A stretch of 64,000 bases of DNA, taken from sequence record OM386654.1; one strand, written 5' to 3'. Position numbers and translations under genes: made by a program. Under the pieces are notes generated by a model. The model did no database searches, was not told the DNA's origin, and worked only from the letters and a program-made list of their open reading frames with translations. Position 1 is the first letter of the stretch. Every line of letters starts with the position of its first letter. Positions 3,553-43,748 of the stretch are shown here, in pieces. The DNA is from Escherichia phage vB_EcoM_ESCO9.

Positions 3553-3961
3553 TTTCTACCTCCCCATAATGCTAACATTTTATTGAAAAATGGAAACGCG
3601 TCGTGCGCGGTATGCAAACCACTATACAGACATTTTTATTCAATGCAAGCATTATTTGCATCTTCGATTCTGTCTTTCACCCACTGCAATAATGGAGGAA
3701 TTAGTATAGGTATTCCCTATCAATTATTCTATATATACCTATTATTTTTAACACACCCCTTTGTACATAATATAGACAAATAAATATCTATGCCACAAAA
3801 ATTTTCCGGTATACCCGATTTATTTCGACACACCCCCTTTTCATAAGCGTAAAGTCAATAATATCAATAACTTGCCGCAAAATACTGCTCGCTTGCGAGA
3901 GGTGCTTAACGCGATTTTCAGCGCCCCCGATTTCTGCCGACCGTCCCCCTCAAATATCAAT

Positions 3962-3980
3962 GAGAATTATTATCATTTGC
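3962..3980. promoter_or_regulatory. Fur-box-like site
   Basis: gagaattattatcatttgc versus Fur consensus GATAATGATAATCATTATC (about 14 of 19). Confidence 0.35.
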
Positions 3981-4156
3981 ATTATCATTCAATGACTTAT
4001 AAGACTTTTGATTATTTTCTGAGCAAGAAAGGCACTACTCACAACAAAACAGATAAATTCTAAGTAAATCAATGGCTTGGCATTTCTAAACATCTATATA
4101 CACCTTGCCAAATGAAATGATCCTGCGTGAAATAGTGCTACCCGTGGAAGATAGCT

Positions 4157-4175
4157 GATAATGATTATCATTTGC
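4157..4175. promoter_or_regulatory. Fur-box-like site (best match)
   Basis: gataatgattatcatttgc matches Fur consensus at 16 of 19 positions. Confidence 0.5.
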
Positions 4176-4512
4176 ATATTTTCTATACTATAAAACACCC
4201 TAAAAATCAAGATAATTCTAATTTATTGCGCTTTTAAGAAAGTAGGCTCAACAAATGATAGGCTATATGGGGGGCAATAGTATGAAAAACCATCTATTCA
4301 TATATAAATAATTTTGCGCAATAGTGTTAATATTTTTCTTGACAAGAAAGATTTCTTTGTGTTCACATAGCGCCCCCTGGAAGGTGGCGCATTATGATCA
4401 TCAGCATCATTATTCACGATGTTTATTATTGTATAGCTTATTATTTAGCTTATATTATAGCCAATGTTCTAAACATTAGCTAATAATAACGCACCGCAAC
4501 AATGTAAGGGAT

Positions 4513-4556
4513 ACAATATACAATTGTATATTGTTGCGCTTGCAGTTGTTGCAAGC
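4513..4556. repeat. two adjacent perfect palindromes
   Basis: acaatatacaattgtatattgt (22 bp perfect inverted repeat) followed by gcttgca-gttgt-tgcaagc. Confidence 0.6.
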
Positions 4557-4695
4557 TACATAAGCACAAATAATGACTATCGGTGATGGTTATTATGTGG
4601 GGTGTGTAGTTGCGTTATTATTAGCCGCCTATGTGTCCGGCATAGGCTGCTAATGATACGCTTGCGAATTATATTTCTTGTTATAGTTATTGTAT

Positions 4696-5050
4696 GGAAT
4701 GATTACCACATGAAATGGTTACTGTATGCAATGATTACTGTATGAAATGATTATCTAAGTAATAGATAGGAAGGTAAAGATTAGACCATAAATAGATAGG
4801 ATGTGAATTATTTAGTAATGTTACTAACAATTTAATAGTTACTTTGTGCAACAATTCGATAGATTATAATTGTAGTTTTAAGGGTTAGATAGATTATATT
4901 TAGCTTAGTAATGATTTATATTAGTTATTATTGTTTAATACAATGTTATCAATGAGATAGTAACAGTAAGTTATAAATAAAGGTGAGATAATTAGTTTTA
5001 ATTTAGTTAGATAACTTATTATTTTATAGGTTAGATGGTCTTAAGTTAAG
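4696..5050. repeat. AT-rich iteron-like short direct repeats
   Basis: Repeated words aatgattac, tgtatg(a/c)aat, aatagatagg, ggttagat(a/g)g. Confidence 0.45.
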
Positions 5051-5122
5051 AATGATTCTCATTATTGCATTATGCAATTTATTGCATAAATAATCAGCTA
5101 TAAATAAGAATGATTATCATTT
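5051..5122. promoter_or_regulatory. Fur-box-like sites plus palindrome
   Basis: gaatgattctcattattgc and agaatgattatcattt; palindrome ttgcattatgcaa between them. Confidence 0.4.
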
Positions 5123-15930: not shown

Positions 15931-16160
15931 GTTTTACATACAGAAGAGGAAACGCCACCCCCACGGCGTAAAGGCGGGGCTAACATACCAGGGGGCACTG
16001 GTTGGAAGGTTGATCGCCGGTAGCTCGTCTAAAATAAATTTGTAAAGAAATGTAAAGATAAAAATAATCGCTTGCTTTTGTTGTTGGTTATGCTATTCTT
16101 ATTGTATGGCGAGGGGACACGGGAGCGCGAGACAAACACCGCCCCTGCGCGTTATTCTCT

Positions 16161-16275
16161 AAATGAGAAAATTCTCATTTGCTAATGATTCTCATTCTCT
16201 TACTGAGAATGATTATCACTTACATAGTTAAATGATAATGATTCTCATTTACAAACGAAAATGATTCTCATTAAC
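16161..16275. promoter_or_regulatory. cluster of about five Fur-box-like sites
   Basis: aaatgagaaaattctcattt palindrome, gagaatgattatcacttac, aaatgataatgattctcattt, aaaatgattctcattaac. Confidence 0.5.
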
Positions 16276-16289
16276 ACACCTATAAAAAC

Positions 16290-16500
16290 ACGAAATTGAA
16301 CTTTTCATTTTTGATTTTTCTACGGAAAAAGGCAAAAAAACTTTAAATAAACTGGGGAATTTTTAAAAAATTGAAGTTTTCATTTTCAAAATCTGGATAG
16401 AAATACATACAAAAACTTTAAATAATTTTGACCAAACTTGAACTTTTCATTTTCAAAATTTGTACCCAAAAATCTGTAAAAACTTTAAATAATTTTGTAC
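16290..16500. repeat. three tandem ~67 bp direct repeats
   Basis: Each unit has TTGAAcTTTTCATTTTcaaaat ... aaaaactttaaataatttt. Confidence 0.6.
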
Positions 16501-16711
16501 TTTTTATAAAAATGATTTTACTGTTCTGTTATAAGTAGTAGTTAAGAGATAGTATGTCTTTTAAAGATCAGATACCATAGTCAAACAAACAAATTAAATA
16601 CTTTATTAACAGAGTACAGAATAATATTTACTCTGGATATATTATTCAGAGGGTGGATTTCCGTACATGAAACCCACACCCCTTTTTATAAAAATAAAAA
16701 TTTTCAAAATA

Positions 16712-17263
16712 TCAGGAAATATCAGATTGTGCTTTTAGATAAACAGCAAGGTCTGTATGCCATTTTCCTAAAAGATTTTGTCCTTTCCAACAGTCCTTAT
16801 TTTCCACGTCACGATCCCACATTCCCATTTTGATACCATAAATAGAATCATAAGGGCTTGCCTCTACGAACTCCTTATCTGCGTAAGCGATAAGTTTATT
16901 TTTGAGATCTTCATTTTGTGTGTATTTAAGATACAAACCACGCTTGACAATCTTCTCCCGTAAAGAAGTCCAAGTAGCTTCATCGTAATCTTTAACTAAT
17001 CTACCTAGTCGCTTATAATATGCTTGTTCTTTTTCTCCTGTATATCTTAGATCTCCGGTTAAAATAGAAGATGCAATACTGTAATCATAAAACAAACATG
17101 CTTTTCTCCACATCATATATTGTTCCACACAAGTAAATTCAACAGAACTTGTAATAGAATTATTATACTTGGGTGCTAAAGGTTCAATAAAAGATGATAG
17201 ATACCAGTTGCTAAATTCATCTTTTGCTGAAAAGAAGAACACATACTTATCAGTAATCCGCAT
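16712..17263 (-). CDS. NADAR-domain protein (YbiA-like)
   Basis: FFFSAKDEFSNWYLSSF ... EQYMMWRKACLF ... EASPYDSIYGIKMG ... KGQNLLGKWHTDL resemble E. coli YbiA motifs. Confidence 0.75.
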   Translation of the reverse strand: MRITDKYVFFFSAKDEFSNWYLSSFIEPLAPKYNNSITSSVEFTCVEQYMMWRKACLFYDYSIASSILTGDLRYTGEKEQAYYKRLGRLVKDYDEATWTSLREKIVKRGLYLKYTQNEDLKNKLIAYADKEFVEASPYDSIYGIKMGMWDRDVENKDCWKGQNLLGKWHTDLAVYLKAQSDIS

Positions 17264-18253
17264 TTACACCTCCTTATTGTATACTAACTTGCCACCATAT
17301 TGTGTAATAATTTTTTGAAGATTTTCCAAATCAGAAACACTTACTGTTTCTGTATGACCGTCTTTCAACTCTCTTGCTGTTAAAATACCAGTTTTTAATT
17401 TTTTCTTTATAGCTCTTTCAGCAGCCTTACACTGTTTCACTGTGCTAAAATCATATAAACAAATACGTTCCATAAAAAACAGATTACGGCTATTTTGAAT
17501 GTTTAATCGCCTATCACTATCTTTAGCTATACCAAACTTAAGAGCAACTATAATATTATCATCCTTAACAATATTAATATATAACTGCTGCTGACTATGA
17601 CCAGCACACATAGGACAACCTCGACCGAGGCTTAATAAATTATGAGCACTCCCTATCTGCTCACCATGCACAAGACAAAGATATTTAAACTTACCTATAG
17701 AAGAGGGTTTGGTAATCCAATCTACCCAGACATACCCTTTCCCTTCTACTTCCTTTTTTACCCTATAGGTGATCTGGTCTTCTGTATACCGATAGTTCCC
17801 ACAACGACACGGAATATACCCTCGTTTAAGGTTATCTCCTTCAGAGTAAAATTTACCATCACAAACACCTGCTTGAACATATTCATCATGAGAGCAAACA
17901 GGACATTCAACCATCCAGATAATATTCCTACATCCTTTACCCCGTGTTCCTGTGTTAGTGAAGATAGTGCCTTCCTTAAATTCCCCTGTAGAAAAGAAAT
18001 CTGCAATATGTTGATCGTCGGACATTGTTTGTGACTTCCTTATATTCTTCCTCCTACATTGTGGACAACCGCTACCACATTTAAAACTGTTAATACTTGT
18101 AGTATCCCATTTATAACCACAATGGCACAACAAATCAAGTTTTGTGTGGACCCCTTTCCATTGTCCCGTCCATCCTAAGATTTGGATTTGCTTACTCTCT
18201 GCTATTGGTATACACTCTTCTTTATATTGTTCCCATGATTTTGGTGCTGCCAT
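17264..18253 (-). CDS. Cys-rich zinc-ribbon protein with T5orf172/GIY-YIG-like C-terminal region
   Basis: Four CxxC-type pairs; C-terminal LYINIV...KFGIAKDSDRRL; stop abuts NADAR start. Confidence 0.45.
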   Translation of the reverse strand: MAAPKSWEQYKEECIPIAESKQIQILGWTGQWKGVHTKLDLLCHCGYKWDTTSINSFKCGSGCPQCRRKNIRKSQTMSDDQHIADFFSTGEFKEGTIFTNTGTRGKGCRNIIWMVECPVCSHDEYVQAGVCDGKFYSEGDNLKRGYIPCRCGNYRYTEDQITYRVKKEVEGKGYVWVDWITKPSSIGKFKYLCLVHGEQIGSAHNLLSLGRGCPMCAGHSQQQLYINIVKDDNIIVALKFGIAKDSDRRLNIQNSRNLFFMERICLYDFSTVKQCKAAERAIKKKLKTGILTARELKDGHTETVSVSDLENLQKIITQYGGKLVYNKEV

Positions 18254-18289
18254 CTACTACTCCTCTTATTAAATCTGGCATTAATGCAA

Positions 18290-18315
18290 GAAAACCCGCC
18301 GAAGCGGGTTTTTAT
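18290..18315. terminator. terminator-like hairpin after AAA ATPase gene
   Basis: acccgc-cgaa-gcgggt flanked by A-run and T-run. Confidence 0.5.
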
Positions 18316-18327
18316 TTGCTGGCTTAC

Positions 18328-19455
18328 TTAAAACACACTTGCCAAAGTTGCACCATTGGTGATAGTTGGTTCCAGAACAATACGGAAAGAATCTTCTGGA
18401 TCATCACTAAACACAACGATTTTACCGCCTGTGATAAGATCTGCTTTCATTTTTGTCGCATTCAATGGAATTCGAGCATCGCCTTCATCATCAAAAACCA
18501 CGTAAGAGCTATTAGCAAGGGCTTCTTTAGAATCTGCATCACTTGGAGATGACAAGTACACGTCTAGTGTGCACGAGCCACCTAAAAAGATTGCAGGTGT
18601 AAAGTTATGCCAACTAGATACCCAGCTAACTTTCTGAAGTTTCCCATTAATAACAACACTGCTGATATCCCATTTATTACCACCACCTAAAGAAACGCCC
18701 ATCATAGAGATGCATTCTTTAAAGGATAAATCAGGGTAGAAATTAAGTTCTTCTACTATACCTTGGATCACATCAAAGGACAACTCTAAACTTACATCCC
18801 AAAGTCTTTGGAAATTATCAAAGTGTGCTTTGTTATCCAGGTTTTTATCTAAATAGTCAATCATAGTTTCTAGTGAGATTTTATCATAATTAAAATTATA
18901 AAACACACGACTAGGACGATTTAAAAAGAATTCAGAGATAAAACCACTGTTTTTAGTCAGAATAAACAGTTTATTACCACTGCCAGTACCATCTAACAAA
19001 GTGAGAAGTGCTTCTTGATCTTGTTTCTTCTCATACACTTTATCAAACTCGTCAAAAATAATCACTGCTTTGTCTGTGATCTTGCTAATAAGTTCAATGA
19101 AATTAGCATCGCTGTAGGCTTGAGTAACCATAATAGTTGGAATACCTTCTTCTACAAGGTCACGACTAATGAGTTTGGCTAACATAGTTTTACCACTGCC
19201 CTTAGTGCCTGTCAGGAGCAAACCTGTATTTTTACCTTGTGCACTCCGGCGATGGAATGTACGAATAACGTGATTTGCTCGTTTTTCTGTTTCACCATAC
19301 AGAACATCCGGTACACCTGTTAGATTACCACGGCTTAAAAAGTAATTGCCAAGGGGATCACGACTAACAGTATAGAATCCAGGTGGAAGATAGTTAGATT
19401 CCACGCCCATATCTTTATTTACACTTACAATATCACCATAAATCGTGTATTTCAT
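18328..19455 (-). CDS. AAA-family ATPase; paralog of 33435..34595
   Basis: Walker A GTKGSGKT, Walker B IIFDEFDK, LFILTKN...RPSR region. Confidence 0.7.
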   Translation of the reverse strand: MKYTIYGDIVSVNKDMGVESNYLPPGFYTVSRDPLGNYFLSRGNLTGVPDVLYGETEKRANHVIRTFHRRSAQGKNTGLLLTGTKGSGKTMLAKLISRDLVEEGIPTIMVTQAYSDANFIELISKITDKAVIIFDEFDKVYEKKQDQEALLTLLDGTGSGNKLFILTKNSGFISEFFLNRPSRVFYNFNYDKISLETMIDYLDKNLDNKAHFDNFQRLWDVSLELSFDVIQGIVEELNFYPDLSFKECISMMGVSLGGGNKWDISSVVINGKLQKVSWVSSWHNFTPAIFLGGSCTLDVYLSSPSDADSKEALANSSYVVFDDEGDARIPLNATKMKADLITGGKIVVFSDDPEDSFRIVLEPTITNGATLASVF

Positions 19456-19467
19456 TTTAAACCCCTT

Positions 19468-19905
19468 TTATCTTTGTTGAGATGAACGAATTAAATCAGC
19501 AGCAAATTCAATCAGATACACTTTTGGTGCAATAATAATTTTTAGCCAATCGAAATTCGAAAAGAAAATAACAAATCCTAAAAAGAAAAAGAAAGCACAG
19601 ACAACAAGACCAACAATAGGCAAAGCAGATACCTCACCATAGCGATCTCGTGACCACAGACATTCTTTATCTTTAATTGCTTTTATGAGGTTCCGCACAA
19701 CAATAAAAGTAATAAACATAAAGCAAATACTAAAAAGTTGCCATAAACCTGCGGATACTGCTTTCCACATTAATAATTGATGAATTACTTCTGGAATTTG
19801 TTGTTTTCCAAACTCTACAACATCACTCATTGTTTGAATAGTGACGTTAACCATGTTCAGAAGTACATCAGTTGCTTTATCTGCGATTGCGTTTGTTTTA
19901 CTCAT
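19468..19905 (-). CDS. membrane protein
   Basis: 145 aa with hydrophobic helices. Confidence 0.6.
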   Translation of the reverse strand: MSKTNAIADKATDVLLNMVNVTIQTMSDVVEFGKQQIPEVIHQLLMWKAVSAGLWQLFSICFMFITFIVVRNLIKAIKDKECLWSRDRYGEVSALPIVGLVVCAFFFFLGFVIFFSNFDWLKIIIAPKVYLIEFAADLIRSSQQR

Positions 19906-33434: not shown

Positions 33435-34595
33435 ATGTTTACAGTATTCGGCAATCAAATCTTTCTGCGTCAGAAATCTGGTACAGATATTGAAGAAATT
33501 CCAGCAGGAACTTTTGGTGTAGGTGTTACTCAAAGTGGTGAGTTCTTCCTGTATCCTAAAAACGATATGGAAGTCCCTTCAGTAACATACGGTGATACTG
33601 ATGATAAATCAGAACGTATTATCAAAACGTTCCTTAGCCGCAAAGGTAAAAACACAGGTGTTCTCCTTGAAGGTACGAAAGGTAGCGGTAAAACTTTGCA
33701 AGCTAAAATGCTGTCTTCTGCTCTTCGTGAAATGGGTATTCCTACTATTTCTATCGGTAGTGCTTTTAATGGTGAAGGCTTTATCAATTTTATGTCTAAA
33801 ATCACACAACCTGTGATGATTATGATCGATGAATTTGATAAACTGTATGCTGAAAAAGATGCACAAGATGGTTTGCTTACCCTGCTGGATGGTGTTGGTG
33901 GCTACGACAAACTGTTTGTATTGACTAAAAATGATGGTTATGTATCAGAATTTTTGCGTAATCGTCCTAGCCGTATTTTCTACAGTTTTAGCTATAAGAA
34001 ACTACCTAAAGCTACTATGGATGATTATCTGGCTAAAAATCTGGAGAACAAAGCCTTCTTACCAGATTTTGAAACGCTTTATAATCTCTCCGTGGATTTG
34101 AACTTTGATATTGTTCAGTCATTAGTAGAAGAACTTAACCGTTACCCTAATGACAAATTCTCTGATGCACTTGCATTGATGGGTATCAGTATTACTGAAC
34201 ACCGCTATGCTGCAAAAGAGGTTAAACTTCTGAAAGTTAACGGTGTAGATCGTACAGGAGATGTTTCGTCAGATACCGATATTGACGGTATGACAGCACA
34301 AGGTTTGTTTAGCGGTAATCGTTATGTTGTAGCTGTAGACCATAAACTAGGTGAAGAGCATCTTCCTGAAATGGAAGGGATTGTTACCGTAGAAGATAAA
34401 GATGAAGAAGGTGATTACTACTGGGGTGTAGACCGTATCTTGCTAACGTATGATGAAAAACACATTCGTACAATGGGTGGTGACGGCTATCACTTTATGT
34501 TCACCGATGATAAAGGTAACAACATTGAAGTTGTTATTAAAAACAAAGAACGTAAAAACTACACAGAGTATGTGTTTGGTGGTCGTTCTTACTAA
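33435..34595 (+). CDS. AAA-family ATPase; paralog of 18328..19455
   Basis: GTKGSGKT, IMIDEFDK, LFVLTKN...RPSR; roughly half of aligned residues shared with the paralog. Confidence 0.7.
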   Translation: MFTVFGNQIFLRQKSGTDIEEIPAGTFGVGVTQSGEFFLYPKNDMEVPSVTYGDTDDKSERIIKTFLSRKGKNTGVLLEGTKGSGKTLQAKMLSSALREMGIPTISIGSAFNGEGFINFMSKITQPVMIMIDEFDKLYAEKDAQDGLLTLLDGVGGYDKLFVLTKNDGYVSEFLRNRPSRIFYSFSYKKLPKATMDDYLAKNLENKAFLPDFETLYNLSVDLNFDIVQSLVEELNRYPNDKFSDALALMGISITEHRYAAKEVKLLKVNGVDRTGDVSSDTDIDGMTAQGLFSGNRYVVAVDHKLGEEHLPEMEGIVTVEDKDEEGDYYWGVDRILLTYDEKHIRTMGGDGYHFMFTDDKGNNIEVVIKNKERKNYTEYVFGGRSY

Positions 34596-34845: not shown

Positions 34846-34998
34846 ATGCTTACAGATGATGAATATAAAGCTATCCAAGAAAAACTAACGGAGCTTGAAA
34901 TTCTTGCTGTCAATATTAAAGATCAATCACATGCTGGAAAGTTACTACATCAAGAGATCAATAAAATTAAGCAGATGATATTCTTTTGGACGGAGGAT
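34846..34998 (+). CDS. small hypothetical protein (50 aa)
   Basis: ORF below track cutoff; GGGGGAAGAAA RBS. Confidence 0.3.
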
Positions 34999-35003
34999 TA
35001 AAA

Positions 35004-35660
35004 ATGACTGTTAAGCATATTTCTTTTGATGTATGGAATACTCTTATTACTGCTAATCCTTTGTATGCAGAAGAACGCAACAAGGTTATTGCCGAGTATG
35101 CCTCTTGTTCTGAGGCAGAAGCAGCTACTGTTTATAAAGAGGTAAAAACTCTCTTAGATTTAAAAGCAGAAAAAGGCATTTGTGGAACGTCTAAGGATGC
35201 TTGGGTAACACTTTCTACTCGTTTGAACATTGATCTTGACAAAGTGGATGGGTTAAAAAGAGATTGTTTGGCAATGTTTATAAAACATCCTCCAACATTG
35301 AATCCTGAACTTTGCAAGAAGTTGGAAGAGCTAAGTTCAACCTACTCTTTGAGTATTAAGAGCAATACTAATTTTGTACCAGGTAGTTTCTTAGCTGTAT
35401 ATTCTGGTTTAACAAAATTACCATTCGACTTTATGCATTTTTCTGACGAGTTTTGCTTGTGTAAACCAGATCCTAGGTTTTTTAAACTCTCTTTTGATGA
35501 AATGGTGACGTTTGATCTCGCACCAGAGGAGATTTTACACGTTGGAGATAGTTTGATTTATGATGGAAAAGCTGTTGACATAGGGATGAAGTTCTGTCAT
35601 ATTATTAATCCAGAAGACTTGTTGGCTAAACTTAAAAAAGAGGAACTTATTAATGCGTAA
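35004..35660 (+). CDS. HAD-superfamily hydrolase
   Basis: Motif I FDVWNTL, motif II SIKSNTN, motif III KPDPRFF, motif IV HVGDSLIYD. Confidence 0.75.
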   Translation: MTVKHISFDVWNTLITANPLYAEERNKVIAEYASCSEAEAATVYKEVKTLLDLKAEKGICGTSKDAWVTLSTRLNIDLDKVDGLKRDCLAMFIKHPPTLNPELCKKLEELSSTYSLSIKSNTNFVPGSFLAVYSGLTKLPFDFMHFSDEFCLCKPDPRFFKLSFDEMVTFDLAPEEILHVGDSLIYDGKAVDIGMKFCHIINPEDLLAKLKKEELINA

Positions 35661-36510
35661 TCAAATTCAACATTTTGCTAATACTTTTACTAACCTGAAG
35701 GAAGCAAAATTTAACATTGCAGATTATTCCAAACTAAAGTTTGGTAGTAACCAGGCAGCAAAAAGAATGGGGCGCATTCTGGCTGAAAGTTTCTTTTCTA
35801 AGTATGAAGAACGACTGGTAAATGAAAGTTTTGTTGTTATTCCATCTCCATATAACTATGTGAAAAATGCAGCTACAGTGTTATCTGAACATTTTGTAGA
35901 TCACCTCAACTACCTAATCTCTATCAAAGGTGGTAAACCAGTGGAGTGGGATATCGTTCATCGTAAAGTGAGCTATATCAATGATTATGGATTTCTTAGC
36001 AAAGAAGATCGTAAGGCTTTGATCGATGGTGACACTTTCTCTATCAATCGTGATTTCTGGGGTAATAAAACTCTGATTTTCATTGATGATGTTAATATTA
36101 CAGGAACGCACGAAGAAAAACTTATTGAAATTTTAGACAAAGAAGGTGTTGAAAACGATACGTTTTTCCTGTACTTTGCAAAGTATGAAGGTACAGAAGC
36201 CAACACCGAAGCTGCACTTAACTTCAACTATATCAATAACCTGGCAGCTTTTATTAAGATGATTAAGCAAGAAACTGATGCTAAATGTTTGGTTCGTCCT
36301 ATTAAGTATCTAATGAGTCAAAGCGAAGTTGATTTTAAAATTGCACTTTCACAGCTTCCTTTGTATTATGTAGAACAACTGTTCTTTGGTTGCCTTGCAG
36401 AAGGCTACAATAACATTGAAAAATATAAAGAGAACTTTGATTTTCTACGTCAATTTTTTGAAAGCAACATTATCAATAAATCTAATGTTAAAGGGGATTA
36501 TTATGTCTAA
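35653..36510 (+). CDS. phosphoribosyltransferase-like protein (type I PRTase motif)
   Basis: PRPP-binding-like TLIFIDDVNITGTHEE; overlaps HAD gene stop. Confidence 0.55.
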   Translation: MRNQIQHFANTFTNLKEAKFNIADYSKLKFGSNQAAKRMGRILAESFFSKYEERLVNESFVVIPSPYNYVKNAATVLSEHFVDHLNYLISIKGGKPVEWDIVHRKVSYINDYGFLSKEDRKALIDGDTFSINRDFWGNKTLIFIDDVNITGTHEEKLIEILDKEGVENDTFFLYFAKYEGTEANTEAALNFNYINNLAAFIKMIKQETDAKCLVRPIKYLMSQSEVDFKIALSQLPLYYVEQLFFGCLAEGYNNIEKYKENFDFLRQFFESNIINKSNVKGDYYV

Positions 36511-37219
36511 TAAAGTAATGACTTTCGGAGATCCTATCACCAATATTACAGAAAAAGATTTTGGGCGTGTAGCAACAGATAAAGATGGTGTCTTAAGAAT
36601 TCGTGTACAAGGTATTACAGCACAGGATGAATATGCTGTGTATGTTTCAGGTCTTAACTATATTGATGATCGCATTACACAAAACTTTGCACTGATCGGT
36701 GGTGTAGAGAAAATGTACTGGGAAGATGAAATTGTAACAAGTTATCCAGCAGGTATCATTGAGGTATACGGTGATCTTTTAGCAGCAGCCGAGAGAGGCG
36801 ATATAGACGCTATAGCACACTGCTGTAACTGTTTTTGCACTATGGGTAGTGGTATTGCACCAAAAATTAAAAGTAAGTGGCCTGGGGCGTTTAAAGCAGA
36901 CTGTGCCACTAAACGTGGTGATTATAAAAAATTAGGTACGTTTACCAAGTATACAGAAAACAATTTGACAATTTATAATTTATATGGACAATATGGTTAT
37001 AGTCGTCGTGAGGAAGGCAAGCGTGACCTGAATTATGAAGCTATCTATAATGCGTTAGATAGTATGGGAGACGATGTTGTATCTTCAGGCGGTAAAATTG
37101 TAGGTTTACCAATGCTTGGTTGTGGTTTGGCTGGAGGTTCTTGGAATATTGTAAAACTTATGATCGAAGAAACTCTAGTAAACAAAGGTTTAAATGTAAT
37201 TGTTTACAAACTGAAATAA
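36503..37219 (+). CDS. macro-domain protein, TARG1/OARD1-like
   Basis: IDAIAHCCNCFCTMGSGIAPKIK and LPMLGCGLAGGSWNIVKLMIEE...VIVYKL resemble human TARG1 LAHCISEDCRMGAGIA / MPRIGCGLDRLQW; about 95 aa N-terminal extension. Confidence 0.75.
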   Translation: MSNKVMTFGDPITNITEKDFGRVATDKDGVLRIRVQGITAQDEYAVYVSGLNYIDDRITQNFALIGGVEKMYWEDEIVTSYPAGIIEVYGDLLAAAERGDIDAIAHCCNCFCTMGSGIAPKIKSKWPGAFKADCATKRGDYKKLGTFTKYTENNLTIYNLYGQYGYSRREEGKRDLNYEAIYNALDSMGDDVVSSGGKIVGLPMLGCGLAGGSWNIVKLMIEETLVNKGLNVIVYKLK

Positions 37220-37228
37220 GGAGAAAGT

Positions 37229-37435
37229 ATGGCAGGTGTTTTAGCAGTATTAGGTTGTTTTATTGTTGTGTTCTTGATTGTGTTAATCCCTAGTTGGCTA
37301 CTGCTTTTAGCATACAATTATATGATTGACATTATCGGCTTAGACTGGCATCATGTTCCTGTAACGTTTTGGAGTGTAGTCTGTGTGACGTTCATTCTTG
37401 CGGTACTCCGTGGTATCTTTCAATCTAACAAATAA
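37229..37435 (+). CDS. small membrane protein
   Basis: 68 aa, two TM helices; AAGGAG RBS. Confidence 0.5.
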   Translation: MAGVLAVLGCFIVVFLIVLIPSWLLLLAYNYMIDIIGLDWHHVPVTFWSVVCVTFILAVLRGIFQSNK

Positions 37436-37449
37436 GAGAGGATCTTTAT

Positions 37450-37698
37450 ATGCGTAAAGTAAATGTTGAAGTGCTTGAAAAATTTATAAACACCCGTGAT
37501 TGTACTATCGGCAAGGTTTACGAGGCTATTCTCATTGAAGATGGGGATGAAGTTCCTGCCCCGTATCATGCCTTTAACGGTCAGGTTAGCAAAGTGGAAG
37601 GTGGTCTTGCTATTTGCTTTATTGATGATGTAGGTGATGCTGTAGCTTTCCCTATCATTAACAAAGAAGATAAACTTAAAATTACAGAACTGAACTAG
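37450..37698 (+). CDS. hypothetical protein
   Basis: 82 aa; AGAGAGG RBS. Confidence 0.5.
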   Translation: MRKVNVEVLEKFINTRDCTIGKVYEAILIEDGDEVPAPYHAFNGQVSKVEGGLAICFIDDVGDAVAFPIINKEDKLKITELN

Positions 37699-37757
37699 TT
37701 GACTTTCTTTAAAAACAGTTTATAGTATAAGATATAGAGCGGAGGATTGTCCTCCGC
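37699..37757 (+). promoter_or_regulatory. promoter plus leader stem-loop upstream of TerC gene
   Basis: TTGACT, 17-18 nt, TAGTAT, then hairpin gcggagga-ttgt-cctccgc, then AAGAGGAG RBS. Confidence 0.5.
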
Positions 37758-37775
37758 ATTAAAGAGGAGATAAGA

Positions 37776-38753
37776 ATGCAACTGGGTTTCCCAATTATTG
37801 ATGTGGTTGTTTTAGTGGGTATTTTAGTGTTGTCGATTTGTATTGATTTCTTTGGCCACAGAGAAAACAAAGAAATTTCATTTAAATCTGCAATTGGTTG
37901 GTCAATTTTTTGGATTGGGGTATCATTAGCCTACTATGGTTTTGTATACTTCCAGCACGGTGCTGATTTTGCGAGCTTGTTCTTGAGTGGGTATGTGTTG
38001 GAGAAATCTCTTTCTGTAGATAACTTAGTAGTATTTGTGGCAGTATTCGCAAGTTTTGGTATTAAAAGCACACACTTGCAACACAAGATTCTACTTTGGG
38101 GTATTGCAGGTGCGATTGTCTTCCGAGGTGTGTTTGTAGCAGTAGGCACTTACTTGTTGAGTTTGGGTTGGTATGTTAATATCTTCTTCGGTGCTGTCAT
38201 CCTTTTCTGTGCGGCTAAAATGGTATTCGCTGGAGATAATGATGCAGAAGTTGATTACTCTAAACACTGGGCTACTCGCATTGTTCGTAAGCTGTTCCCT
38301 GTATCTGATCAGATGGATGGTGAGAAGTTCTTCACAATCAAAAATGGTGTTCGTGTAGCAACTCCGGCTCTGGTTTGTGTGTTTGTAATGGAAATGGTTG
38401 ACGTAATCTTTGCAGTAGACTCTGTTCCAGCAGTAATTGCAGTGACACAAGAACCTCTGCTGGTGTTCTCTTCGATGCTCTGTGCAATCTTAGGTTTACG
38501 TGCTCTGTTCTTTGTTCTTAGTGTTGCACTGAAGTATTTGGTTCATCTGGAGAAAGCAGTTATCGTAGTCCTGGTATTTGTGGGTGTAAAACTGATGTAT
38601 CATCCGTTTGCAGAAACTCTGCACGCAAAAGTGAGTTTCCTGCCAGCACACATTGATCCGACGATCAGTATGTATATTGTGTTAGGTACTCTTGGGTTGG
38701 GTGTTATTGCAAGTTTAATCTTCCCTGAAAAAGAAGACCAGACTGTTGCTTAA
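37776..38753 (+). CDS. TerC-family integral membrane protein
   Basis: Multi-pass membrane protein with YVLEKSLSVDNLVVF signature. Confidence 0.8.
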   Translation: MQLGFPIIDVVVLVGILVLSICIDFFGHRENKEISFKSAIGWSIFWIGVSLAYYGFVYFQHGADFASLFLSGYVLEKSLSVDNLVVFVAVFASFGIKSTHLQHKILLWGIAGAIVFRGVFVAVGTYLLSLGWYVNIFFGAVILFCAAKMVFAGDNDAEVDYSKHWATRIVRKLFPVSDQMDGEKFFTIKNGVRVATPALVCVFVMEMVDVIFAVDSVPAVIAVTQEPLLVFSSMLCAILGLRALFFVLSVALKYLVHLEKAVIVVLVFVGVKLMYHPFAETLHAKVSFLPAHIDPTISMYIVLGTLGLGVIASLIFPEKEDQTVA

Positions 38754-38759
38754 TTCATT

Positions 38760-38782
38760 AAGCCCCTTCGGGGGCTTTGTTG
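38760..38782 (+). terminator. intrinsic terminator
   Basis: agcccc-ttcg-ggggct then ttgtt (UUCG loop). Confidence 0.6.
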
Positions 38783-38792
38783 AGGTGATCTG

Positions 38793-38999
38793 ATGGTAGT
38801 TTTACGTGTTCTTTGGATTCTGTTTGAAAATATTTGTTTTGCTTTAGGGTTATTTTGTTTGATTTTTATCTTGACAACATACATTGATAACCATACAATT
38901 ACTATCAACAGGAACGGAGAACAGATGTATTGTTTCTCTAGGGATTTTAAAAATTGTGTTGAGACTTTAAATGAGAGGGTTACAAATGAAAAACATTAA
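38793..38999 (+). CDS. small membrane protein
   Basis: 68 aa hydrophobic N-terminus. Confidence 0.4.
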   Translation: MVVLRVLWILFENICFALGLFCLIFILTTYIDNHTITINRNGEQMYCFSRDFKNCVETLNERVTNEKH

Positions 39000-39576
39000 A
39001 TCTTTTATTGTTGCAGTTGTTTTAGGTAGTGCATTGCTGGTAGGTTGTGATGATTCTGAAAATGTACAAAATCAACGTTACCAACAAACACCAAATCAGA
39101 TGGTAGATGAACAATATGTAAATCAGCCTGCACCTCAAGTTGTTCAAGCAGCACCTGCACAACCTTCAACAGTTGTTGTGCAAGGAGGCGGCAGTGGTTC
39201 TTCTGGTGTAGGTGAGTTTGCTACAGGTATGCTTCTTGGTCATATGTTGAGTGGTAATAGTGGCGGTGGTGGTTATAGAGATGGTGGTAGCAGCACAACA
39301 ATTATTAATAACAACGCTGCTCCTACAACTAACAGTAAAGCATATACAACACAAAAGCATAGTTTTTATGATAAACAAGGAAATACATATACAACCACTA
39401 AACAAAACACAATTAAGCAGCAAAGTGTACAAACGTATTCACGCCCATCAACAACAAAAGTGAATAGTGATTACTCTGCTCGTAAGTCTTACTCAAGCCC
39501 TATTAGCTCTTATAGTAAGTCTTCGAAAAGTTATTCTTCGTCGAAACGTAGTTTTAGTAGCTCACGTCGTCGTTAA
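38986..39576 (+). CDS. lipoprotein with Gly-rich and Ser/Tyr/Lys-rich low-complexity regions
   Basis: Signal peptide with lipobox LLVGC; GGGSGSSGVG...GNSGGGG; C-terminal SYSKSSKSYSSSKRSFSSSRRR. Confidence 0.6.
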   Translation: MKNIKSFIVAVVLGSALLVGCDDSENVQNQRYQQTPNQMVDEQYVNQPAPQVVQAAPAQPSTVVVQGGGSGSSGVGEFATGMLLGHMLSGNSGGGGYRDGGSSTTIINNNAAPTTNSKAYTTQKHSFYDKQGNTYTTTKQNTIKQQSVQTYSRPSTTKVNSDYSARKSYSSPISSYSKSSKSYSSSKRSFSSSRRR

Positions 39577-39611
39577 TAATTTAATACAGATTAAATAAGA
39601 AGGAGAAACAG

Positions 39612-40463
39612 ATGAAACTAGAAGTTGGTAAAGTATATCGCCTGGAAGGTTGGATCTTTAATCAAGAAATCCTTGAGAAGAATAAAGATGGTTTTGAGTT
39701 TGTTGGTACTACCAAGGAAAGTATGCACGATGACGAATACTGTAAATTCGTTGGTAAAAATACAGGTCAAGAACAATTTTGCTTTAAGAGCGCAATCGGG
39801 GACTATGCTTCTGTAATGCCAACACCAGAAAAGACTTCGAAGCAATATACTGTCTTTGGTGTAAAACTTGAAGAACTTGTAGAACACCCACGTTTTGAAG
39901 AGTTCAAGGTTGCTGCAATGCGCAAGCATTCTGAAATTAAAATACATAATTTGTTTGATTTAGAAGATCGGTTTGATATCTTTATGTATGATCGCAGGGA
40001 AAAGCATTTTGATGCAACGACTTCAAAATTTGCTGCAACAGAGGATATTAAAATCCTTGATGTTGATACCTTTCTTGAGAGTGTATCGTTTGTATTCATT
40101 CCTAAATACAAAAAACGTAGTGATCATAAACGTGTGAAAGGAACTCCTCGTAAGAAACGTACTGTAAACAAAGCAACTTTGCACTTCACTTCTGGTGATA
40201 AATATACTCTCAAAGGGTTTGAAAGTGTTTTATATGATGCTGGAACAGGTAATATCAAGTTTATCATTAAGGCAACCTACAAAGGTACGGTATTGCACGA
40301 AGAGGCTGTTACACTACCTGTATTCGATATCTCTCGTGTTGAGGTACGGGGTGTTAAAGAGTCCTTCGATCTGGATTTCTTAACTACTAATGCTACTGGT
40401 TATGTTAATCTGGAAGCAGATGGAGCATTTATTACTACAAATTATTTAGATATGTTTGTTTAA
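39612..40463 (+). CDS. hypothetical protein
   Basis: 283 aa; AAGGAG RBS. Confidence 0.6.
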   Translation: MKLEVGKVYRLEGWIFNQEILEKNKDGFEFVGTTKESMHDDEYCKFVGKNTGQEQFCFKSAIGDYASVMPTPEKTSKQYTVFGVKLEELVEHPRFEEFKVAAMRKHSEIKIHNLFDLEDRFDIFMYDRREKHFDATTSKFAATEDIKILDVDTFLESVSFVFIPKYKKRSDHKRVKGTPRKKRTVNKATLHFTSGDKYTLKGFESVLYDAGTGNIKFIIKATYKGTVLHEEAVTLPVFDISRVEVRGVKESFDLDFLTTNATGYVNLEADGAFITTNYLDMFV

Positions 40464-40531
40464 TACTTAATTTGTGTTATGATGGTGGTACAGAGGTATC
40501 ACCATCTACTAAAGAATATGGAGGAAATTGA

Positions 40532-41635
40532 ATGTCCAGTCCTTTTATCAGTGCCGTAAAAAGCAAACCGTCTGAAATGAGTGTATTCACGGCAACAACA
40601 GAAAAAAGTAAGTCTTTGTTTGCTCCAAGTGCTATGGATGCAAGCCCTGTATATGCCCCTGCTGTTGCACGACCTGTACAAATGCTGCCTCCAATGTCTC
40701 GTGAAGAGATTGAACAGGTTGGTGCTGATGCAGGACTTACTCTTCGTAACCTTAATGCTGAAGTGCTTAAACACCAGCGTTCATCTCAGGGAGATGAAAT
40801 GAGTGAACGTTTAACTGCACTTATTAAGCAAGCAAAGCAACTTGATCCTAACTCTATTAAACAATCTAAAGGCTTAGGTAAACTAGTTAAGAAAGTATTA
40901 GGTATGAAAGAAGATTTGTTTGGTGAATTTGACACCATCAATAATCGTATTGAAGGTTTGGTAAAGACACTACAAACAGACTTGAAAAAAGAAGAAGATT
41001 CTTTACGATATCTGCAACGTTTAGAAGAGGCTATTGCAAAATATGCTCTTAGCTTAAACAGGGATATAGAGCTTCTAACAGCTACTTATGAAAAAGAAGA
41101 AGTTCGCCTTAATACACTACCTGAAAATGAAGTAGAAGAGCGTCAACGTACTCGTGACACTATGGATCTGCTTGAAATTCGTATTGCAGATCTGAAAGCC
41201 TTACGTTTACTGTGCGTTCAGATGGGGCCACGTGTACAAAGTATGCAGAAAGTATCTGCAAGTTTGATGCGATCAGCCCGTAATATTGTGAATAATGTTA
41301 TTCCTGCTTACTCTGCAAACTTTTCTATGTATATTGAAAGTCTACGCCAGAAGAAAGCAGCCGATACGCAGAACAATGTACTGAATGAATTTAATGCTGC
41401 TATTGCAATGGGTAGTGATCTGGCTGCACAAAACCAGATTGAAGCTACACAACTTGCTAATCGTCAAGTATTGGATATTGAAACATTGCGTCGTGATCAA
41501 GAAAACTTAGTTAAAATGTTGGAAGAAACTAACCGAATCAACACTGAAGCCCGTGCTGCTCGTATTGATTACATTCAAGAAGTGCAATCTCTTGAAGATG
41601 GTATGATTCAAACTGTTAAACGTGGTCTACTTTAA
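40532..41635 (+). CDS. TelA-like (toxic anion resistance) protein candidate
   Basis: 367 aa, largely helical/coiled-coil; size and LDPNSIKQSKGLGKL region fit my recollection of TelA. Confidence 0.45.
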   Translation: MSSPFISAVKSKPSEMSVFTATTEKSKSLFAPSAMDASPVYAPAVARPVQMLPPMSREEIEQVGADAGLTLRNLNAEVLKHQRSSQGDEMSERLTALIKQAKQLDPNSIKQSKGLGKLVKKVLGMKEDLFGEFDTINNRIEGLVKTLQTDLKKEEDSLRYLQRLEEAIAKYALSLNRDIELLTATYEKEEVRLNTLPENEVEERQRTRDTMDLLEIRIADLKALRLLCVQMGPRVQSMQKVSASLMRSARNIVNNVIPAYSANFSMYIESLRQKKAADTQNNVLNEFNAAIAMGSDLAAQNQIEATQLANRQVLDIETLRRDQENLVKMLEETNRINTEARAARIDYIQEVQSLEDGMIQTVKRGLL

Positions 41636-41648
41636 GGAGAAATATATT

Positions 41649-41855
41649 ATGAATATTAAAATTTACAAACTGTCTGGTTCTATGATTGCTGTTCAGTATG
41701 ACAATGAAGATCGTTATGTTCTCCTCCAGGATGCTTGGTTAGATGATCCTAATGTATTCACTGTCCTGCGAGAACTACGTTCTGTCTATACCTATTCTTC
41801 TAAAGATGGTTTTGACAATTCAACGATGGAATTGGTAAAAGAGGAGAATGTGTAA
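41649..41855 (+). CDS. hypothetical protein
   Basis: Start moved to ATG 41649 with AAGGAG RBS. Confidence 0.5.
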   Translation: MNIKIYKLSGSMIAVQYDNEDRYVLLQDAWLDDPNVFTVLRELRSVYTYSSKDGFDNSTMELVKEENV

Positions 41856-42055
41856 TGAGTAAAGATATTCACTTAACTCGTGAAGAATTGCAAACCATTA
41901 TGGAAGATGCTTTCATTGATGGTTGGAAACAAGGTCAAGAATCAGATTGGTATGATGCCGAAGATTTTTTGTATTATCATATGACTGCACCTGTAGACGA
42001 GCAAACACACTCTGAAACAACTTTGGCTTTAATTGATCTTAAGGCTGGTGTATAA
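41855..42055 (+). CDS. hypothetical protein
   Basis: 66 aa; shares EL..I...AF..GWK.G motif with C-terminus of next ORF. Confidence 0.5.
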   Translation: MSKDIHLTREELQTIMEDAFIDGWKQGQESDWYDAEDFLYYHMTAPVDEQTHSETTLALIDLKAGV

Positions 42056-42618
42056 TGGGGTGTTTTAGTTTCTTGTGCAAAGAGTCTGGTAATGCTGCTC
42101 TTTCTACCTCTTTCGATGGCTCTCCTTGCTACCTATTTCTTTTGAAAGGTGGTAAGGTTGTCGAAGAGATGTATGGGAATTATGATAGCTATGGTAGTGT
42201 TTTCTCTAACGAAGAAGATAAACATGGCAATCGTAAAAGATTTAAGTGGTCTATGCCTTGGGAAGAAGTTTGTAATTTGATGTTCTCTTCCGATCTTGGA
42301 GATGGGATTGCTCTAGTATTAGAAGAGCACTTTACAGGCGAGATCCCAACAGAAAGATCTGAAGAAGACCCTAACCAGGGTTGGGGTGATGGGGAAGAAG
42401 ATCCAGATTGCTTCTTCAGCACTGAAAATAATAAATTTAAACGTGTTGACAATCCTTACCACAAAGTGCATAATACTTGCATTGAGACAGAAGAAGACTC
42501 AAAGCTAGAAATTGAAGATGATTTAGTTGTAACTATCTCTTTAAACGAGTTGCAAAAAATCACTAGAGAGGCTTTCTATTTAGGTTGGAAAGTAGGTAAA
42601 GGAGGAGATAGTGCTTAA
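42055..42618 (+). CDS. hypothetical acidic protein
   Basis: 187 aa. Confidence 0.55.
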   Translation: MGCFSFLCKESGNAALSTSFDGSPCYLFLLKGGKVVEEMYGNYDSYGSVFSNEEDKHGNRKRFKWSMPWEEVCNLMFSSDLGDGIALVLEEHFTGEIPTERSEEDPNQGWGDGEEDPDCFFSTENNKFKRVDNPYHKVHNTCIETEEDSKLEIEDDLVVTISLNELQKITREAFYLGWKVGKGGDSA

Positions 42619-42880
42619 ATTTAATATCAAAGACGACAAATCAGATGAACCTAAATGTTTTGGAGAACTTGACGTAGGTGATACATTTGTATATTATGTT
42701 GCCTATCAAGATTCTGGTTTAGATACATTCAGAAATTTAGTGTTTATTAAGGTTAATACAAACCAAGCAATGTGTCTGAACGGTTCGCAAAGAGGTCAAC
42801 TTAGCTGTATTTCGTATGATACAGAAATGGTAGAAGTGGATTTAGAAGTTACTAACATTACACTCAGAAAGGAGAAATAA
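42611..42880 (+). CDS. hypothetical protein
   Basis: 89 aa; GTG start after AAAGGAGGAG. Confidence 0.5.
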   Translation: MLKFNIKDDKSDEPKCFGELDVGDTFVYYVAYQDSGLDTFRNLVFIKVNTNQAMCLNGSQRGQLSCISYDTEMVEVDLEVTNITLRKEK

Positions 42881-42881
42881 T

Positions 42882-43676: not shown

Positions 43677-43683
43677 AAAACGC

Positions 43684-43711
43684 TTGACTTTGTAGAAAAG
43701 ATTAGTAAAAT
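43684..43711 (+). promoter_or_regulatory. sigma70-type promoter upstream of TerD gene
   Basis: TTGACT, 16 nt, TAAAAT. Confidence 0.55.
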
Positions 43712-43748
43712 AGACAACGTAAATTAACAACAAAGGAGATAATAAATT

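Follow-up and report, generated by a model that had tools for sequence, protein, structure and literature searches.

An adfN-type NADAR gene and its variable homing-endonuclease-family neighbour in a Justusliebigvirus coliphage

NADAR proteins and CapR/T5orf172 nucleases described to date

A near-identical relative of the phage protein considered here, AdfN^Bas60 (bas60_0111) of phage PaulScherrer (Bas60), has been studied through ectopic expression only (Johannesman, Carlson & LeRoux, Nat Commun 2025;16:1598; PMC11825919). In uninfected E. coli it neutralised DarT1, a DNA ADP-ribosyltransferase specific for guanine, with no additional phage factor required, and it restored RB69, T5, and Bas25, three unrelated phages that regained full titre on DarTG1 hosts, while DarTG2 was unaffected (PMC11825919). 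Another stand-alone phage NADAR, AdfN^T4 (gp30.3), also removes guanine ADP-ribose from DNA and counters DarTG1, but it performs well only in T-even infection and, unlike AdfN^Bas60, fails to neutralise DarT1 when cells are not infected (PMC11825919). The NADAR antitoxins associated with DarG1/DarT1 (E. coli C7 and G. lovleyi; Schuller et al. 2023, PDB 8BAT) have the same fold, and guanine-N2-ADP-ribose hydrolysis is the reaction common to them and to the family of the present NADAR. Finally, the NADAR of P. nicotianae (PDB 8BAU) is a eukaryotic protein, and it was the only solved structure found by sequence for the phage protein (phmmer E=6e-12).

The second group of relevance comprises homing endonucleases with a CapR/T5orf172 architecture (PMC10448857), in which repeated CapR modules are followed by a C-terminal T5orf172 domain, as reported for vibriophage ICP1 and other phages (PMC8096241, PMC10448857). 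Variation in repeat number and shuffling of DNA-binding modules have been described for these enzymes (Netter 2021, Barth 2023) and, as detailed below, occur in the nuclease gene of the present locus as well.

The NADAR gene and its protein

The window, a 64,000-nucleotide stretch of Escherichia phage vB_EcoM_ESCO9 (OM386654.1), belongs to a Justusliebigvirus coliphage with 99.7% identity to phage Antha. Two ORFs placed by the original prediction exist exactly as described, each on the minus strand (Table 1), and they share with AdfN^Bas60 both the genus and a slot consisting of ATPase, nuclease, and NADAR genes. The Bas60 nuclease allele differs, however, being 467 aa long with five modules, compared to 329 aa and three modules here. 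The NADAR gene is flanked by the nuclease gene on one side and by an ORF-poor repeat region on the other. The TAA of the nuclease gene (17266-17264) is followed directly by the ATG of the NADAR gene (17263-17261), and the Shine-Dalgarno sequence of the latter, AAGGAGGTG, overlaps the final nuclease codons (K-E-V). In all 29 of the loci examined, the nuclease stop abuts the NADAR ATG. As a separate observation, the 130-kb record of EP57 carries a deletion that removes the nuclease gene and two-thirds of the NADAR gene, which may have arisen in assembly or in the laboratory.

Table 1. Coordinates of the genes, domains, and signals discussed, as positions in the window.
Feature	Position	Strand	Evidence
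Hairpin, strong, ~30 nt past the NADAR stop	16648..16683	-	RNA fold, 14-pair stem
adfN-type NADAR gene, 183 aa	16712..17263	-	Pfam NADAR; 181/183 identity to bas60_0111
Predicted nuclease gene, 329 aa	17264..18253	-	CapR x3 + T5orf172
3' part of the nuclease gene, encoding the T5orf172/GIY-YIG domain (aa 220-329) and the stop	17264..17596	-	
Shine-Dalgarno sequence AAGGAGGTG of the NADAR gene	17267..17275	-	Direct sequence reading
5' part of the nuclease gene, encoding the three CapR-type DNA-binding modules with zinc fingers (aa 1-219)	17597..18253	-	
Intrinsic-terminator-like hairpin between ATPase and nuclease genes	18287..18312	-	9-bp stem, UUCG loop, U-rich tail
AAA+ ATPase gene, 375 aa, upstream of the nuclease	18328..19455	-	Pfam AAA E=1.5e-9; PHROG 2376 E=7e-108
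Macro-domain gene	36386-37219	+	Pfam Macro E=3e-7, 30.8 bits vs cut-off 22

The identification of the 183-aa protein as a NADAR was confirmed. All of the motifs quoted for it are there (VFFFSAKDEFSNWY, VEQYMMWRKA, EASPYDSIYGIKMG, and KGQNLLG), and the profile search that the original prediction had proposed matched Pfam PF08719 with E=3.1e-36 (125.5 bits vs a cut-off of 35.1), aligning residues 13-168 with profile positions 9-154 of 163. PHROG 1017 was matched at E=6e-50. Despite low overall identity to 8BAU (49 bits over ~130 aligned residues), eight of its nine named ADP-ribose-binding or catalytic residues (E43, K50, K75, R79, W89, R93, E125, D130, and W133) have identical counterparts in the phage protein, namely E47, K54, K84, R88, W98, R102, E134, and D139, the ninth position, W133, being occupied by Y142. 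Moreover, dN/dS values of 0.04-0.13 relative to other Justusliebigvirus alleles reflect strong purifying selection on the gene.

The protein departs from the other described NADARs in several ways. The T4-type AdfN belongs to another clade, in which a His replaces the active-site Glu that is otherwise conserved and is kept here as E134. Compared to the DarG1 type, there is no adjacent DarT1 gene and no N-terminal extension (the Pfam match begins at residue 13 of 183), and the active-site acid is of the Glu type, whereas DarT1-linked NADARs have an Asp (D171). AdfN^Bas60, on the other hand, is identical at 181 of 183 residues and has the same synteny; A96D and A178T are the sole differences, and neither of them affects an ADP-ribose-site residue. 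Many database records label the gene as "hypothetical", "GTP cyclohydrolase II", or "DNA methyltransferase", and literature searches on DUF6939 and on NADAR together with Justusliebigvirus returned nothing useful.

The suggestion that such an enzyme might reverse guanine ADP-ribosylation gains clear support from this near-identity to a protein that neutralises the guanine-specific DarT1 (PMC11825919), and the challenge with DarT-carrying hosts that the original prediction called for has already been published for the orthologue (PMC11825919). Since AdfN^Bas60 has been experimentally proven, the function of the NADAR gene can be regarded as already known, the enzymatic and anti-DarTG1 activities presumed here being taken from the literature on this 99%-identical protein. 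Likewise, because that protein has already been published, the finding is one of annotation and not of discovery.

It is very probable that the 183-aa protein is an AdfN countering DarT1, that the protein encoded upstream is a nuclease of the homing-endonuclease family, and that the NADAR is independent of this nuclease. In the proposed mechanism, DarT1, the toxin of the host's DarTG1 defence system, would modify guanine N2 in DNA with ADP-ribose, and the 183-aa protein, as the Justusliebigvirus AdfN ("anti-DarT factor NADAR") and a stand-alone NADAR-fold N-glycosidase, would strip the ADP-ribose from guanine N2 such that phage DNA replication could proceed. The 329-aa nuclease would be free-standing, its gene sitting between the terminator of the ATPase gene and the ribosome-binding site of the NADAR gene.

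A separate, second ADP-ribose-processing gene had also been proposed for this genome, and a Macro-domain gene was indeed found well apart from the NADAR, on the plus strand (Table 1). The occurrence of Macro and NADAR proteins in one phage genome is a common pairing.

The neighbouring nuclease and its variable DNA-binding modules

The original prediction ascribed a T5orf172/GIY-YIG-like tail to the 329-aa protein, and this holds, with a Pfam T5orf172 score of 21.5 bits that lies barely over the cut-off of 20; in several other alleles the score is under threshold or there is no match. The C-terminal domain has the GIY-YIG fold with its conserved Tyr, Arg, and Glu. The claim of four CxxC pairs was mistaken, however, as the protein has three CxxC (CPQC 63-66, CPVC 117-120, and CPMC 213-216), two CxC (CHC 43-45 and CRC 149-151), and one CxxH (CLVH 193-196). 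These make up three four-ligand zinc sites (C43/C45/C63/C66, C117/C120/C149/C151, and C193/H196/C213/C216) that match the three CapR modules recognised by Pfam (three stretches, E=2e-25, 89.2 bits vs a cut-off of 24.2). The ligands are invariant or almost so between alleles and include the CxxC...CxC zinc finger described in PMC8096241. In addition, the protein matches PHROG 681 "endonuclease" with E=9e-68, and putative homing endonucleases of ICP1 have 32% identity to it by tblastn. Taken from the sequence, these features predict a nuclease; structure prediction was run with database homologues as input. A PDB search with the nuclease profile returned no more than a weak resemblance to the zinc ribbon of ribosomal protein bL31 (E ~0.05), which supports only the presence of a zinc ribbon.

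Alleles of the nuclease gene possess three, four, or five DNA-binding modules, and it is in this part only that nucleotide identity to other alleles drops to 49-80%. While the modules are hypervariable, with dS up to about 1 vs about 0.1 in the flanks, hardly any variation is seen in the nuclease domain or in the two flanking genes; dN/dS is 0.10-0.28 for the nuclease domain, and its motif residues do not vary. Across one allele split, the DNA-binding part differs by 16-20 nonsynonymous and 1-3 synonymous codon changes, an excess that represents a single lineage event and for which a hand-made, simple binomial estimate against neutrality gives p~0.03. A diversity-generating retroelement was considered as the source of this excess and set aside, as Pfam searches of ~35 of the larger ORFs found no reverse transcriptase and the protein lacks the lectin fold of a retroelement target.

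The position of the gene is constant. An intact copy occurs at 29/29 Justusliebigvirus loci and in 10/10 distinct ATPase contexts from metagenomes, and the gene persists through two genera, Justusliebigvirus and Phapecoctavirus. No nuclease-free allele was found among close relatives by megablast/blastn of the locus, by a scan of IMG/VR that covered just 5 loci, or by a metagenome look-up based on the 100%-conserved ATPase. Sporadic presence and recognisable empty sites, as expected of a mobile element, were thus not seen in the sampled population, where every genome carries the gene at a single locus, in contrast to the homing endonucleases that it resembles. The survey of such enzymes emphasises structural or replication modules as their location (PMC10448857), whereas this gene adjoins an AAA ATPase gene and a putative anti-defence gene. 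The ATPase itself shows 99.7-100% amino-acid identity throughout Justusliebigvirus, and in all ten distinct contexts its stop is followed by a 74-nt spacer, with the nuclease start at 75 nt. On the left, the nuclease slot is always bordered by the ATPase gene, itself a candidate region for the homing target. What is new at this locus concerns only the adjoining nuclease, which occupies one slot in all sampled genomes and combines a near-constant nuclease domain with widely varying DNA-binding modules.

This distribution fits a fixed or domesticated nuclease as well as a selfish one. It is conceivable, albeit unlikely, that the nuclease has been domesticated as a specificity-diversifying weapon against co-infecting relatives, satellites, or invading DNA, much like Odn of ICP1, and that it forms, with AdfN, a small terminator-bounded cassette for counter-defence and competition. 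Its fixation in intact form in two genera, the purifying selection on its nuclease domain, the confinement of divergence and of changes in module number to the DNA-binding part, and the nonsynonymous excess would all suit such a role. Nevertheless, no target is known, and the nuclease gene had no match when 5,426 complete E. coli genomes were searched by blastn in sensitive mode. Odn-like genes were recognised through a RepA_N-type domain homologous to a phage-satellite gene, but blastn detected no such homology here, and the DNA-binding domain is instead the ordinary CapR of typical T5orf172 homing endonucleases. Moreover, the nonsynonymous excess stems from one event with p~0.03, and repeat shuffling has already been described for bona fide homing endonucleases. 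More doubtful still is the fuller proposal that swapped, positively selected zinc-finger modules cut the DNA of competitor phages or satellites, with a terminator-bounded nuclease-adfN cassette conserved in Stephanstirmvirinae.

Substrate of the NADAR and its relation to the nuclease

Returning to the reading of the NADAR as an AdfN, one might instead imagine that its main substrate is a soluble ADP-ribose derivative, such as an immune signal or an RNA-repair by-product, or, by analogy with E. coli YbiA, an intermediate of the riboflavin pathway, and that anti-DarT1 action is a side activity. The Glu at position 134, equivalent to E125 of 8BAU, is indeed typical of the YbiA-type active site and not of the T4-type AdfN with its His; several records carry annotations as a YbiA-like N-glycosidase or GTP cyclohydrolase II, and it has been argued that phage NADARs target mostly low-molecular-weight ADP-ribose derivatives (Iyer et al. 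2022, PMC9503650). Furthermore, YbiA removes guanine-ADP-ribose in vitro yet leaves cells unprotected from DarT1, which means that activity in vitro is not diagnostic by itself (PMC11125620). It is precisely in cells, however, that the proteins part ways, as neither YbiA nor the T4 protein gave protection from DarT1 (PMC11125620), whereas AdfN^Bas60 both protects cells and fully restores its three test phages (PMC11825919). A published phylogeny also groups AdfN^Bas60 with non-YbiA bacterial NADARs (PMC11825919), and no riboflavin or NAD-salvage genes adjoin the NADAR in the window. A non-DNA main substrate is accordingly a long shot.

As for the nuclease, the original prediction held that the two genes are co-transcribed, and this part of it is plausible. 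The coding sequences abut, the Shine-Dalgarno sequence of the NADAR gene lies inside the nuclease gene, no terminator was found between the two, and hairpins bracket the pair. The hairpin that follows the ATPase gene folds at -18 kcal/mol (z=-2.4) and corresponds in position to a terminator in the annotation of phage PATM; a consensus terminator scan did not list it, and it is the folding and the PATM annotation that reveal the terminator. The hairpin beyond the NADAR gene reaches -21.7 kcal/mol over an 86-nt stretch (z=-2.35) and probably marks where the nuclease-NADAR transcription unit ends, although we only infer termination there because a clean U-tract is absent. A promoter scan returned 20 sites vs 19.3 expected by chance, and no promoter was assigned. 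Nuclease and NADAR are probably co-transcribed, which would be no more than a consequence of the position of the nuclease gene.

The implied functional pairing is not supported, since the protein encoded upstream has the architecture of a homing endonuclease and no functional link is evident, which is essentially the outcome that the original prediction named as its refutation. NADAR homologues were found in 718 phage records, mostly from Staphylococcus, Listeria, Enterococcus, and Bacillus phages, and the nuclease family in 397, mostly from Escherichia and Vibrio phages; most NADAR-bearing phages lack this nuclease family, and nuclease homologues at 46% and 35% identity reside on contigs with neither ATPase nor NADAR nearby. 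In Tr1 and KP2025, the sole relatives without the nuclease, the orthologous ATPase is kept, nuclease and NADAR are both absent, and other genes fill the slot. A two-protein system acting on ADP-ribosylated DNA, in which the nuclease would, for example, recognise or excise modified sites and the NADAR remove the adduct, would be in keeping with the abutting, probably co-transcribed genes and with the junction kept throughout the 29 Justusliebigvirus loci, but is highly improbable given that AdfN^Bas60 suffices alone (PMC11825919), that the order in the sister genus Phapecoctavirus is ATPase, nuclease, orf121, orf62, NADAR, with two small, unrelated ORFs intervening, that the two families are not generally linked in phages, and that the DNA-binding modules vary while the NADAR stays constant, which is unexpected for co-adapted partners. 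These observations point to a NADAR that is independent of the nuclease in this phage. Because the nuclease-NADAR junction is strictly conserved in the genus, the two genes may still be coupled at the level of regulation.

If the nuclease does act as a weapon, the nuclease-adfN pair would constitute a compact "offence plus counter-defence" cassette. The nuclease provides a clean natural example for studying specificity change in homing-endonuclease-type proteins and for asking whether their genes become domesticated. Finally, the NADAR gene, as a likely adfN, would explain the potential for DarTG1 resistance in this group of therapeutic-candidate coliphages.

A NADAR protein with a characterized orthologue

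The 183-aa product of the NADAR gene possesses all of the family motifs named in the original prediction, and it matches both the Pfam NADAR profile (E=3.1e-36; 125.5 bits against a cut-off of 35.1) and PHROG 1017 (E=6e-50). The sole solved structure found by sequence was the Phytophthora NADAR-ADP-ribose complex 8BAU (E=6e-12). By alignment with 8BAU, the residues that Schuller et al. named as holding ADP-ribose or serving guanine de-ADP-ribosylation (PMC11543638) were transferred to the phage protein, where E47, K54, K84, R88, W98, R102, E134 and D139 are identical to those of the 8BAU ADP-ribose site, while W133 of 8BAU is replaced by Y142. The protein retains the YbiA-type Glu (E134). The His that marks T4-type phage NADARs is absent, as are the Asp arrangement and the N-terminal extension seen in antitoxins linked to DarT1. 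Strong purifying selection acts on the gene within the genus (dN/dS 0.04-0.13).

A distinct NADAR of BASEL phages Bas60, Bas61 and Bas62, named AdfN^Bas60 (anti-DarT factor NADAR), was described by Johannesman, Carlson and LeRoux (preprint PMC11257639; Nat Commun 2025;16:1598, PMC11825919). Ectopically expressed AdfN^Bas60 neutralized DarT1, the guanine-specific DNA ADP-ribosyltransferase toxin of DarTG1 defence, in uninfected E. coli and brought RB69, T5 and Bas25 back to full titre on DarTG1 hosts, but had no effect on a second system, DarTG2 (PMC11825919). Its gene, bas60_0111 of phage PaulScherrer (Bas60), occupies the same slot as the gene studied here, and the two products are identical at 181 of 183 residues; the NADAR of Bas61 (EmilieFrey) is 98.9% identical. 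By analogy with the literature on this 99%-identical, ectopically expressed protein, the window NADAR would most likely hydrolyse the N-glycosidic bond joining ADP-ribose to guanine N2 on DarT1-modified phage DNA, and this removal would most likely restore phage DNA replication. The earlier reading of the gene was right, although the function is not novel, having already been published and experimentally tested for the orthologue. Database labels for the gene include "hypothetical protein", "GTP cyclohydrolase II", "putative YbiA-like N-glycosidase", "N-glycosidase", "NADAR family protein" and, in phage Eryne, "DNA methyltransferase". None of these six labels captures the AdfN function as published, and the first two and the last are uninformative or wrong.

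Locus layout and gene neighbourhood

The window derives from a Justusliebigvirus-type coliphage (Stephanstirmvirinae); over positions 16000-19500 it shares 99.7% identity with Escherichia phage Antha and 96-99% with some 50 further records. Four "UNVERIFIED Campylobacter phage" records, A145, A150, C3 and A110a (MG0656xx), are Justusliebigvirus and ~97% identical to the locus; their assignment to Campylobacter as host is probably an error, for which contamination may be responsible. The NADAR and nuclease ORFs were confirmed exactly as first described.

Features of the NADAR locus and of the Ter-like cluster, in window coordinates
Feature	Coordinates	Strand	Remarks
NADAR ORF	16712-17263	-	183 aa
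Nuclease ORF	17264-18253	-	329 aa; head to tail with NADAR ORF
AAA+ ATPase gene	18328-19455		375 aa; upstream of nuclease gene, 74-nt spacer between
HAD hydrolase	34986-35660	+	Ter-like cluster
ComF-like phosphoribosyltransferase	35653-36510	+	Ter-like cluster
Macro-domain protein	36386-37219	+	277 aa; Ter-like cluster
TerC	37776-38753	+	Ter-like cluster
TelA	40532-41635	+	Ter-like cluster
vWA-TerF-like protein	42882-43676	+	Ter-like cluster
TerD	43749-44345	+	Ter-like cluster

The TAA of the nuclease gene directly abuts the NADAR ATG, and the NADAR Shine-Dalgarno sequence, AAGGAGGTG, is embedded in the final nuclease codons. Co-transcription of the two genes is plausible, since there is no terminator between them and hairpins lie on both sides of the pair: a 9-bp UUCG hairpin with a U-rich tail in the ATPase-nuclease spacer, and a second strong hairpin ~30 nt past the NADAR stop. 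It appears to be a consequence of where the nuclease gene was inserted.

Beyond the downstream hairpin is an AT-rich repeat region with few ORFs. Three direct repeats of ~70-79 nt, with spacings of 75 and 67 nt and 65-72% identity to the first of them, occupy 16293-16513; they may represent an origin or a promoter array. Annotations of phages muut, alia and tuntematon also show repeat regions at the corresponding location. E. coli Fur-box-like sequences are also enriched in the window, in zones 16181-16275 and 3959-5121, with five matches to the consensus GATAATGATAATCATTATC at three or fewer mismatches against 0.05 expected. Three exact copies of the core AATGAGAATCATT lie within 16184-16272 and an inverted partner at 16205-16218; the core is seen again in a second ORF-poor zone, at ~4-5 kb. 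Such sequences may serve the host Fur protein or, alternatively, act as operators or iterons for a phage protein.

The claim of a second ADP-ribose activity elsewhere in the genome was borne out at the domain level by a Macro-domain protein (E=3e-7) encoded within a Ter-like cluster spanning 34986-44345 (+), and the genome thus possesses two separate ADP-ribose-processing domains. DNA-virus genomes contain Macro and NADAR together more frequently than chance predicts, and NADAR is carried by 27% of myoviruses (Iyer et al. 2022; PMC9503650). In phage Antha, the Macro gene is labelled just "phosphatase". A second AAA ATPase, at 33435-34595 (+), shares 47% identity with the one bordering the nuclease slot across a stretch of 254 residues.

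A homing-endonuclease-family gene beside NADAR

The 329-aa protein contains three Pfam CapR modules (E=2e-25) and matches PHROG 681, "endonuclease" (E=9e-68), together with the predicted T5orf172 domain, at 21.5 bits barely above the threshold of 20. Zinc-ligand pairs are present as foreseen, although not as four CxxC pairs: three CxxC, two CxC and one CxxH yield three four-ligand sites. The same CxxC...CxC zinc finger is known for CapR and ICP1 T5orf172 homing endonucleases (PMC8096241; PMC10448857), and the protein is a member of this described family. Y225, K239, G241, R249, E279, E302 and T303 are invariant among homologues to as low as 30% identity, with a spacing that suits a GIY...YIG...R...E motif, for which we infer the roles of individual residues.

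The supposed functional link between nuclease and NADAR is unsupported, and several lines of evidence argue against it. AdfN^Bas60 works alone (PMC11825919). Phapecoctavirus, the sister genus, has the ATPase ahead of the nuclease but places two ORFs, the first of 121 aa and the second of 62-74 aa, between nuclease and NADAR, so that the nuclease's constant neighbour is the ATPase terminator rather than NADAR. Contigs bearing nuclease homologues (46% and 35% identical) have neither the ATPase nor NADAR close to them, and in one of them the homologue adjoins a DNA polymerase. Phage ranges also differ: the 718 phage records with a NADAR homologue come mainly from Staphylococcus, Listeria, Enterococcus and Bacillus phages, and the 397 with the nuclease family mainly from Escherichia and Vibrio phages. 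Finally, in Citrobacter phage Tr1 (locus L010, 3294-3911) and Klebsiella phage KP2025 (L011, 3171-3788), a DUF6939 protein of 205 aa (Pfam E=2e-7 and 2e-9) substitutes for both genes after the orthologous ATPase, which suggests a variable accessory-gene slot downstream of the ATPase; a literature search on DUF6939 found nothing. In Escherichia phage vB_EcoM_EP57 (OR544956.1, a 130.7-kb Phapecoctavirus record; L008, 2369-4231), an ATPase ORF extended to 501 aa precedes just NADAR residues 112-172, the final third, indicating deletion of the nuclease gene, the two small ORFs and most of NADAR; this may be a natural mutant or an assembly artefact.

Fixation and module variation of the nuclease

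Presence of the nuclease is not sporadic. All 29 collected Justusliebigvirus-type loci contain an intact copy whose stop codon adjoins the NADAR ATG; between them they carry 26 distinct nucleotide alleles, which encode 323-467 aa. The number of modules per allele is three, four or five. In the metagenome collection, 670 blocks index the identical ATPase protein, and in all ten distinct contexts returned the nuclease start was the same, with the same 74-nt spacer before it. The flanks are near-invariant in amino acid identity (ATPase 99.7-100%, NADAR 96.7-100%), whereas the nuclease is just 60-100% identical. In a 100-nt sliding comparison, nucleotide identity falls to 49-80% in the part encoding the zinc-finger modules, while identity over the final 300 nt, which encode the nuclease domain, is 92-100%, like that of the flanks. 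Synonymous divergence in the DNA-binding part of divergent alleles is ~0.9-1.2, versus 0.07-0.12 in the flanks, so these modules were acquired from old lineages through recombination and did not arise by mutation in situ. Repeat shuffling of this sort has already been reported for T5orf172 homing endonucleases (PMC10448857).

One split has the opposite pattern. Between the 329-aa group, which includes the window, and the 325-aa group (EmilieFrey, W22), the DNA-binding part differs at 16-20 nonsynonymous and just 1-3 synonymous codons (dN/dS ~5.6), while across allele comparisons the ATPase has 7-23 synonymous differences and 0 nonsynonymous ones. The split is a single lineage event, with p of only about 0.03 against neutrality by a simple binomial estimate made by hand. 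Fixation and the conserved nuclease domain leave room for a domesticated role, although blastn against 5,426 complete E. coli genomes turned up no related sequence as a candidate marker of a satellite target. Fixation of the nuclease together with hypervariability of its modules constitutes a modest new descriptive point.
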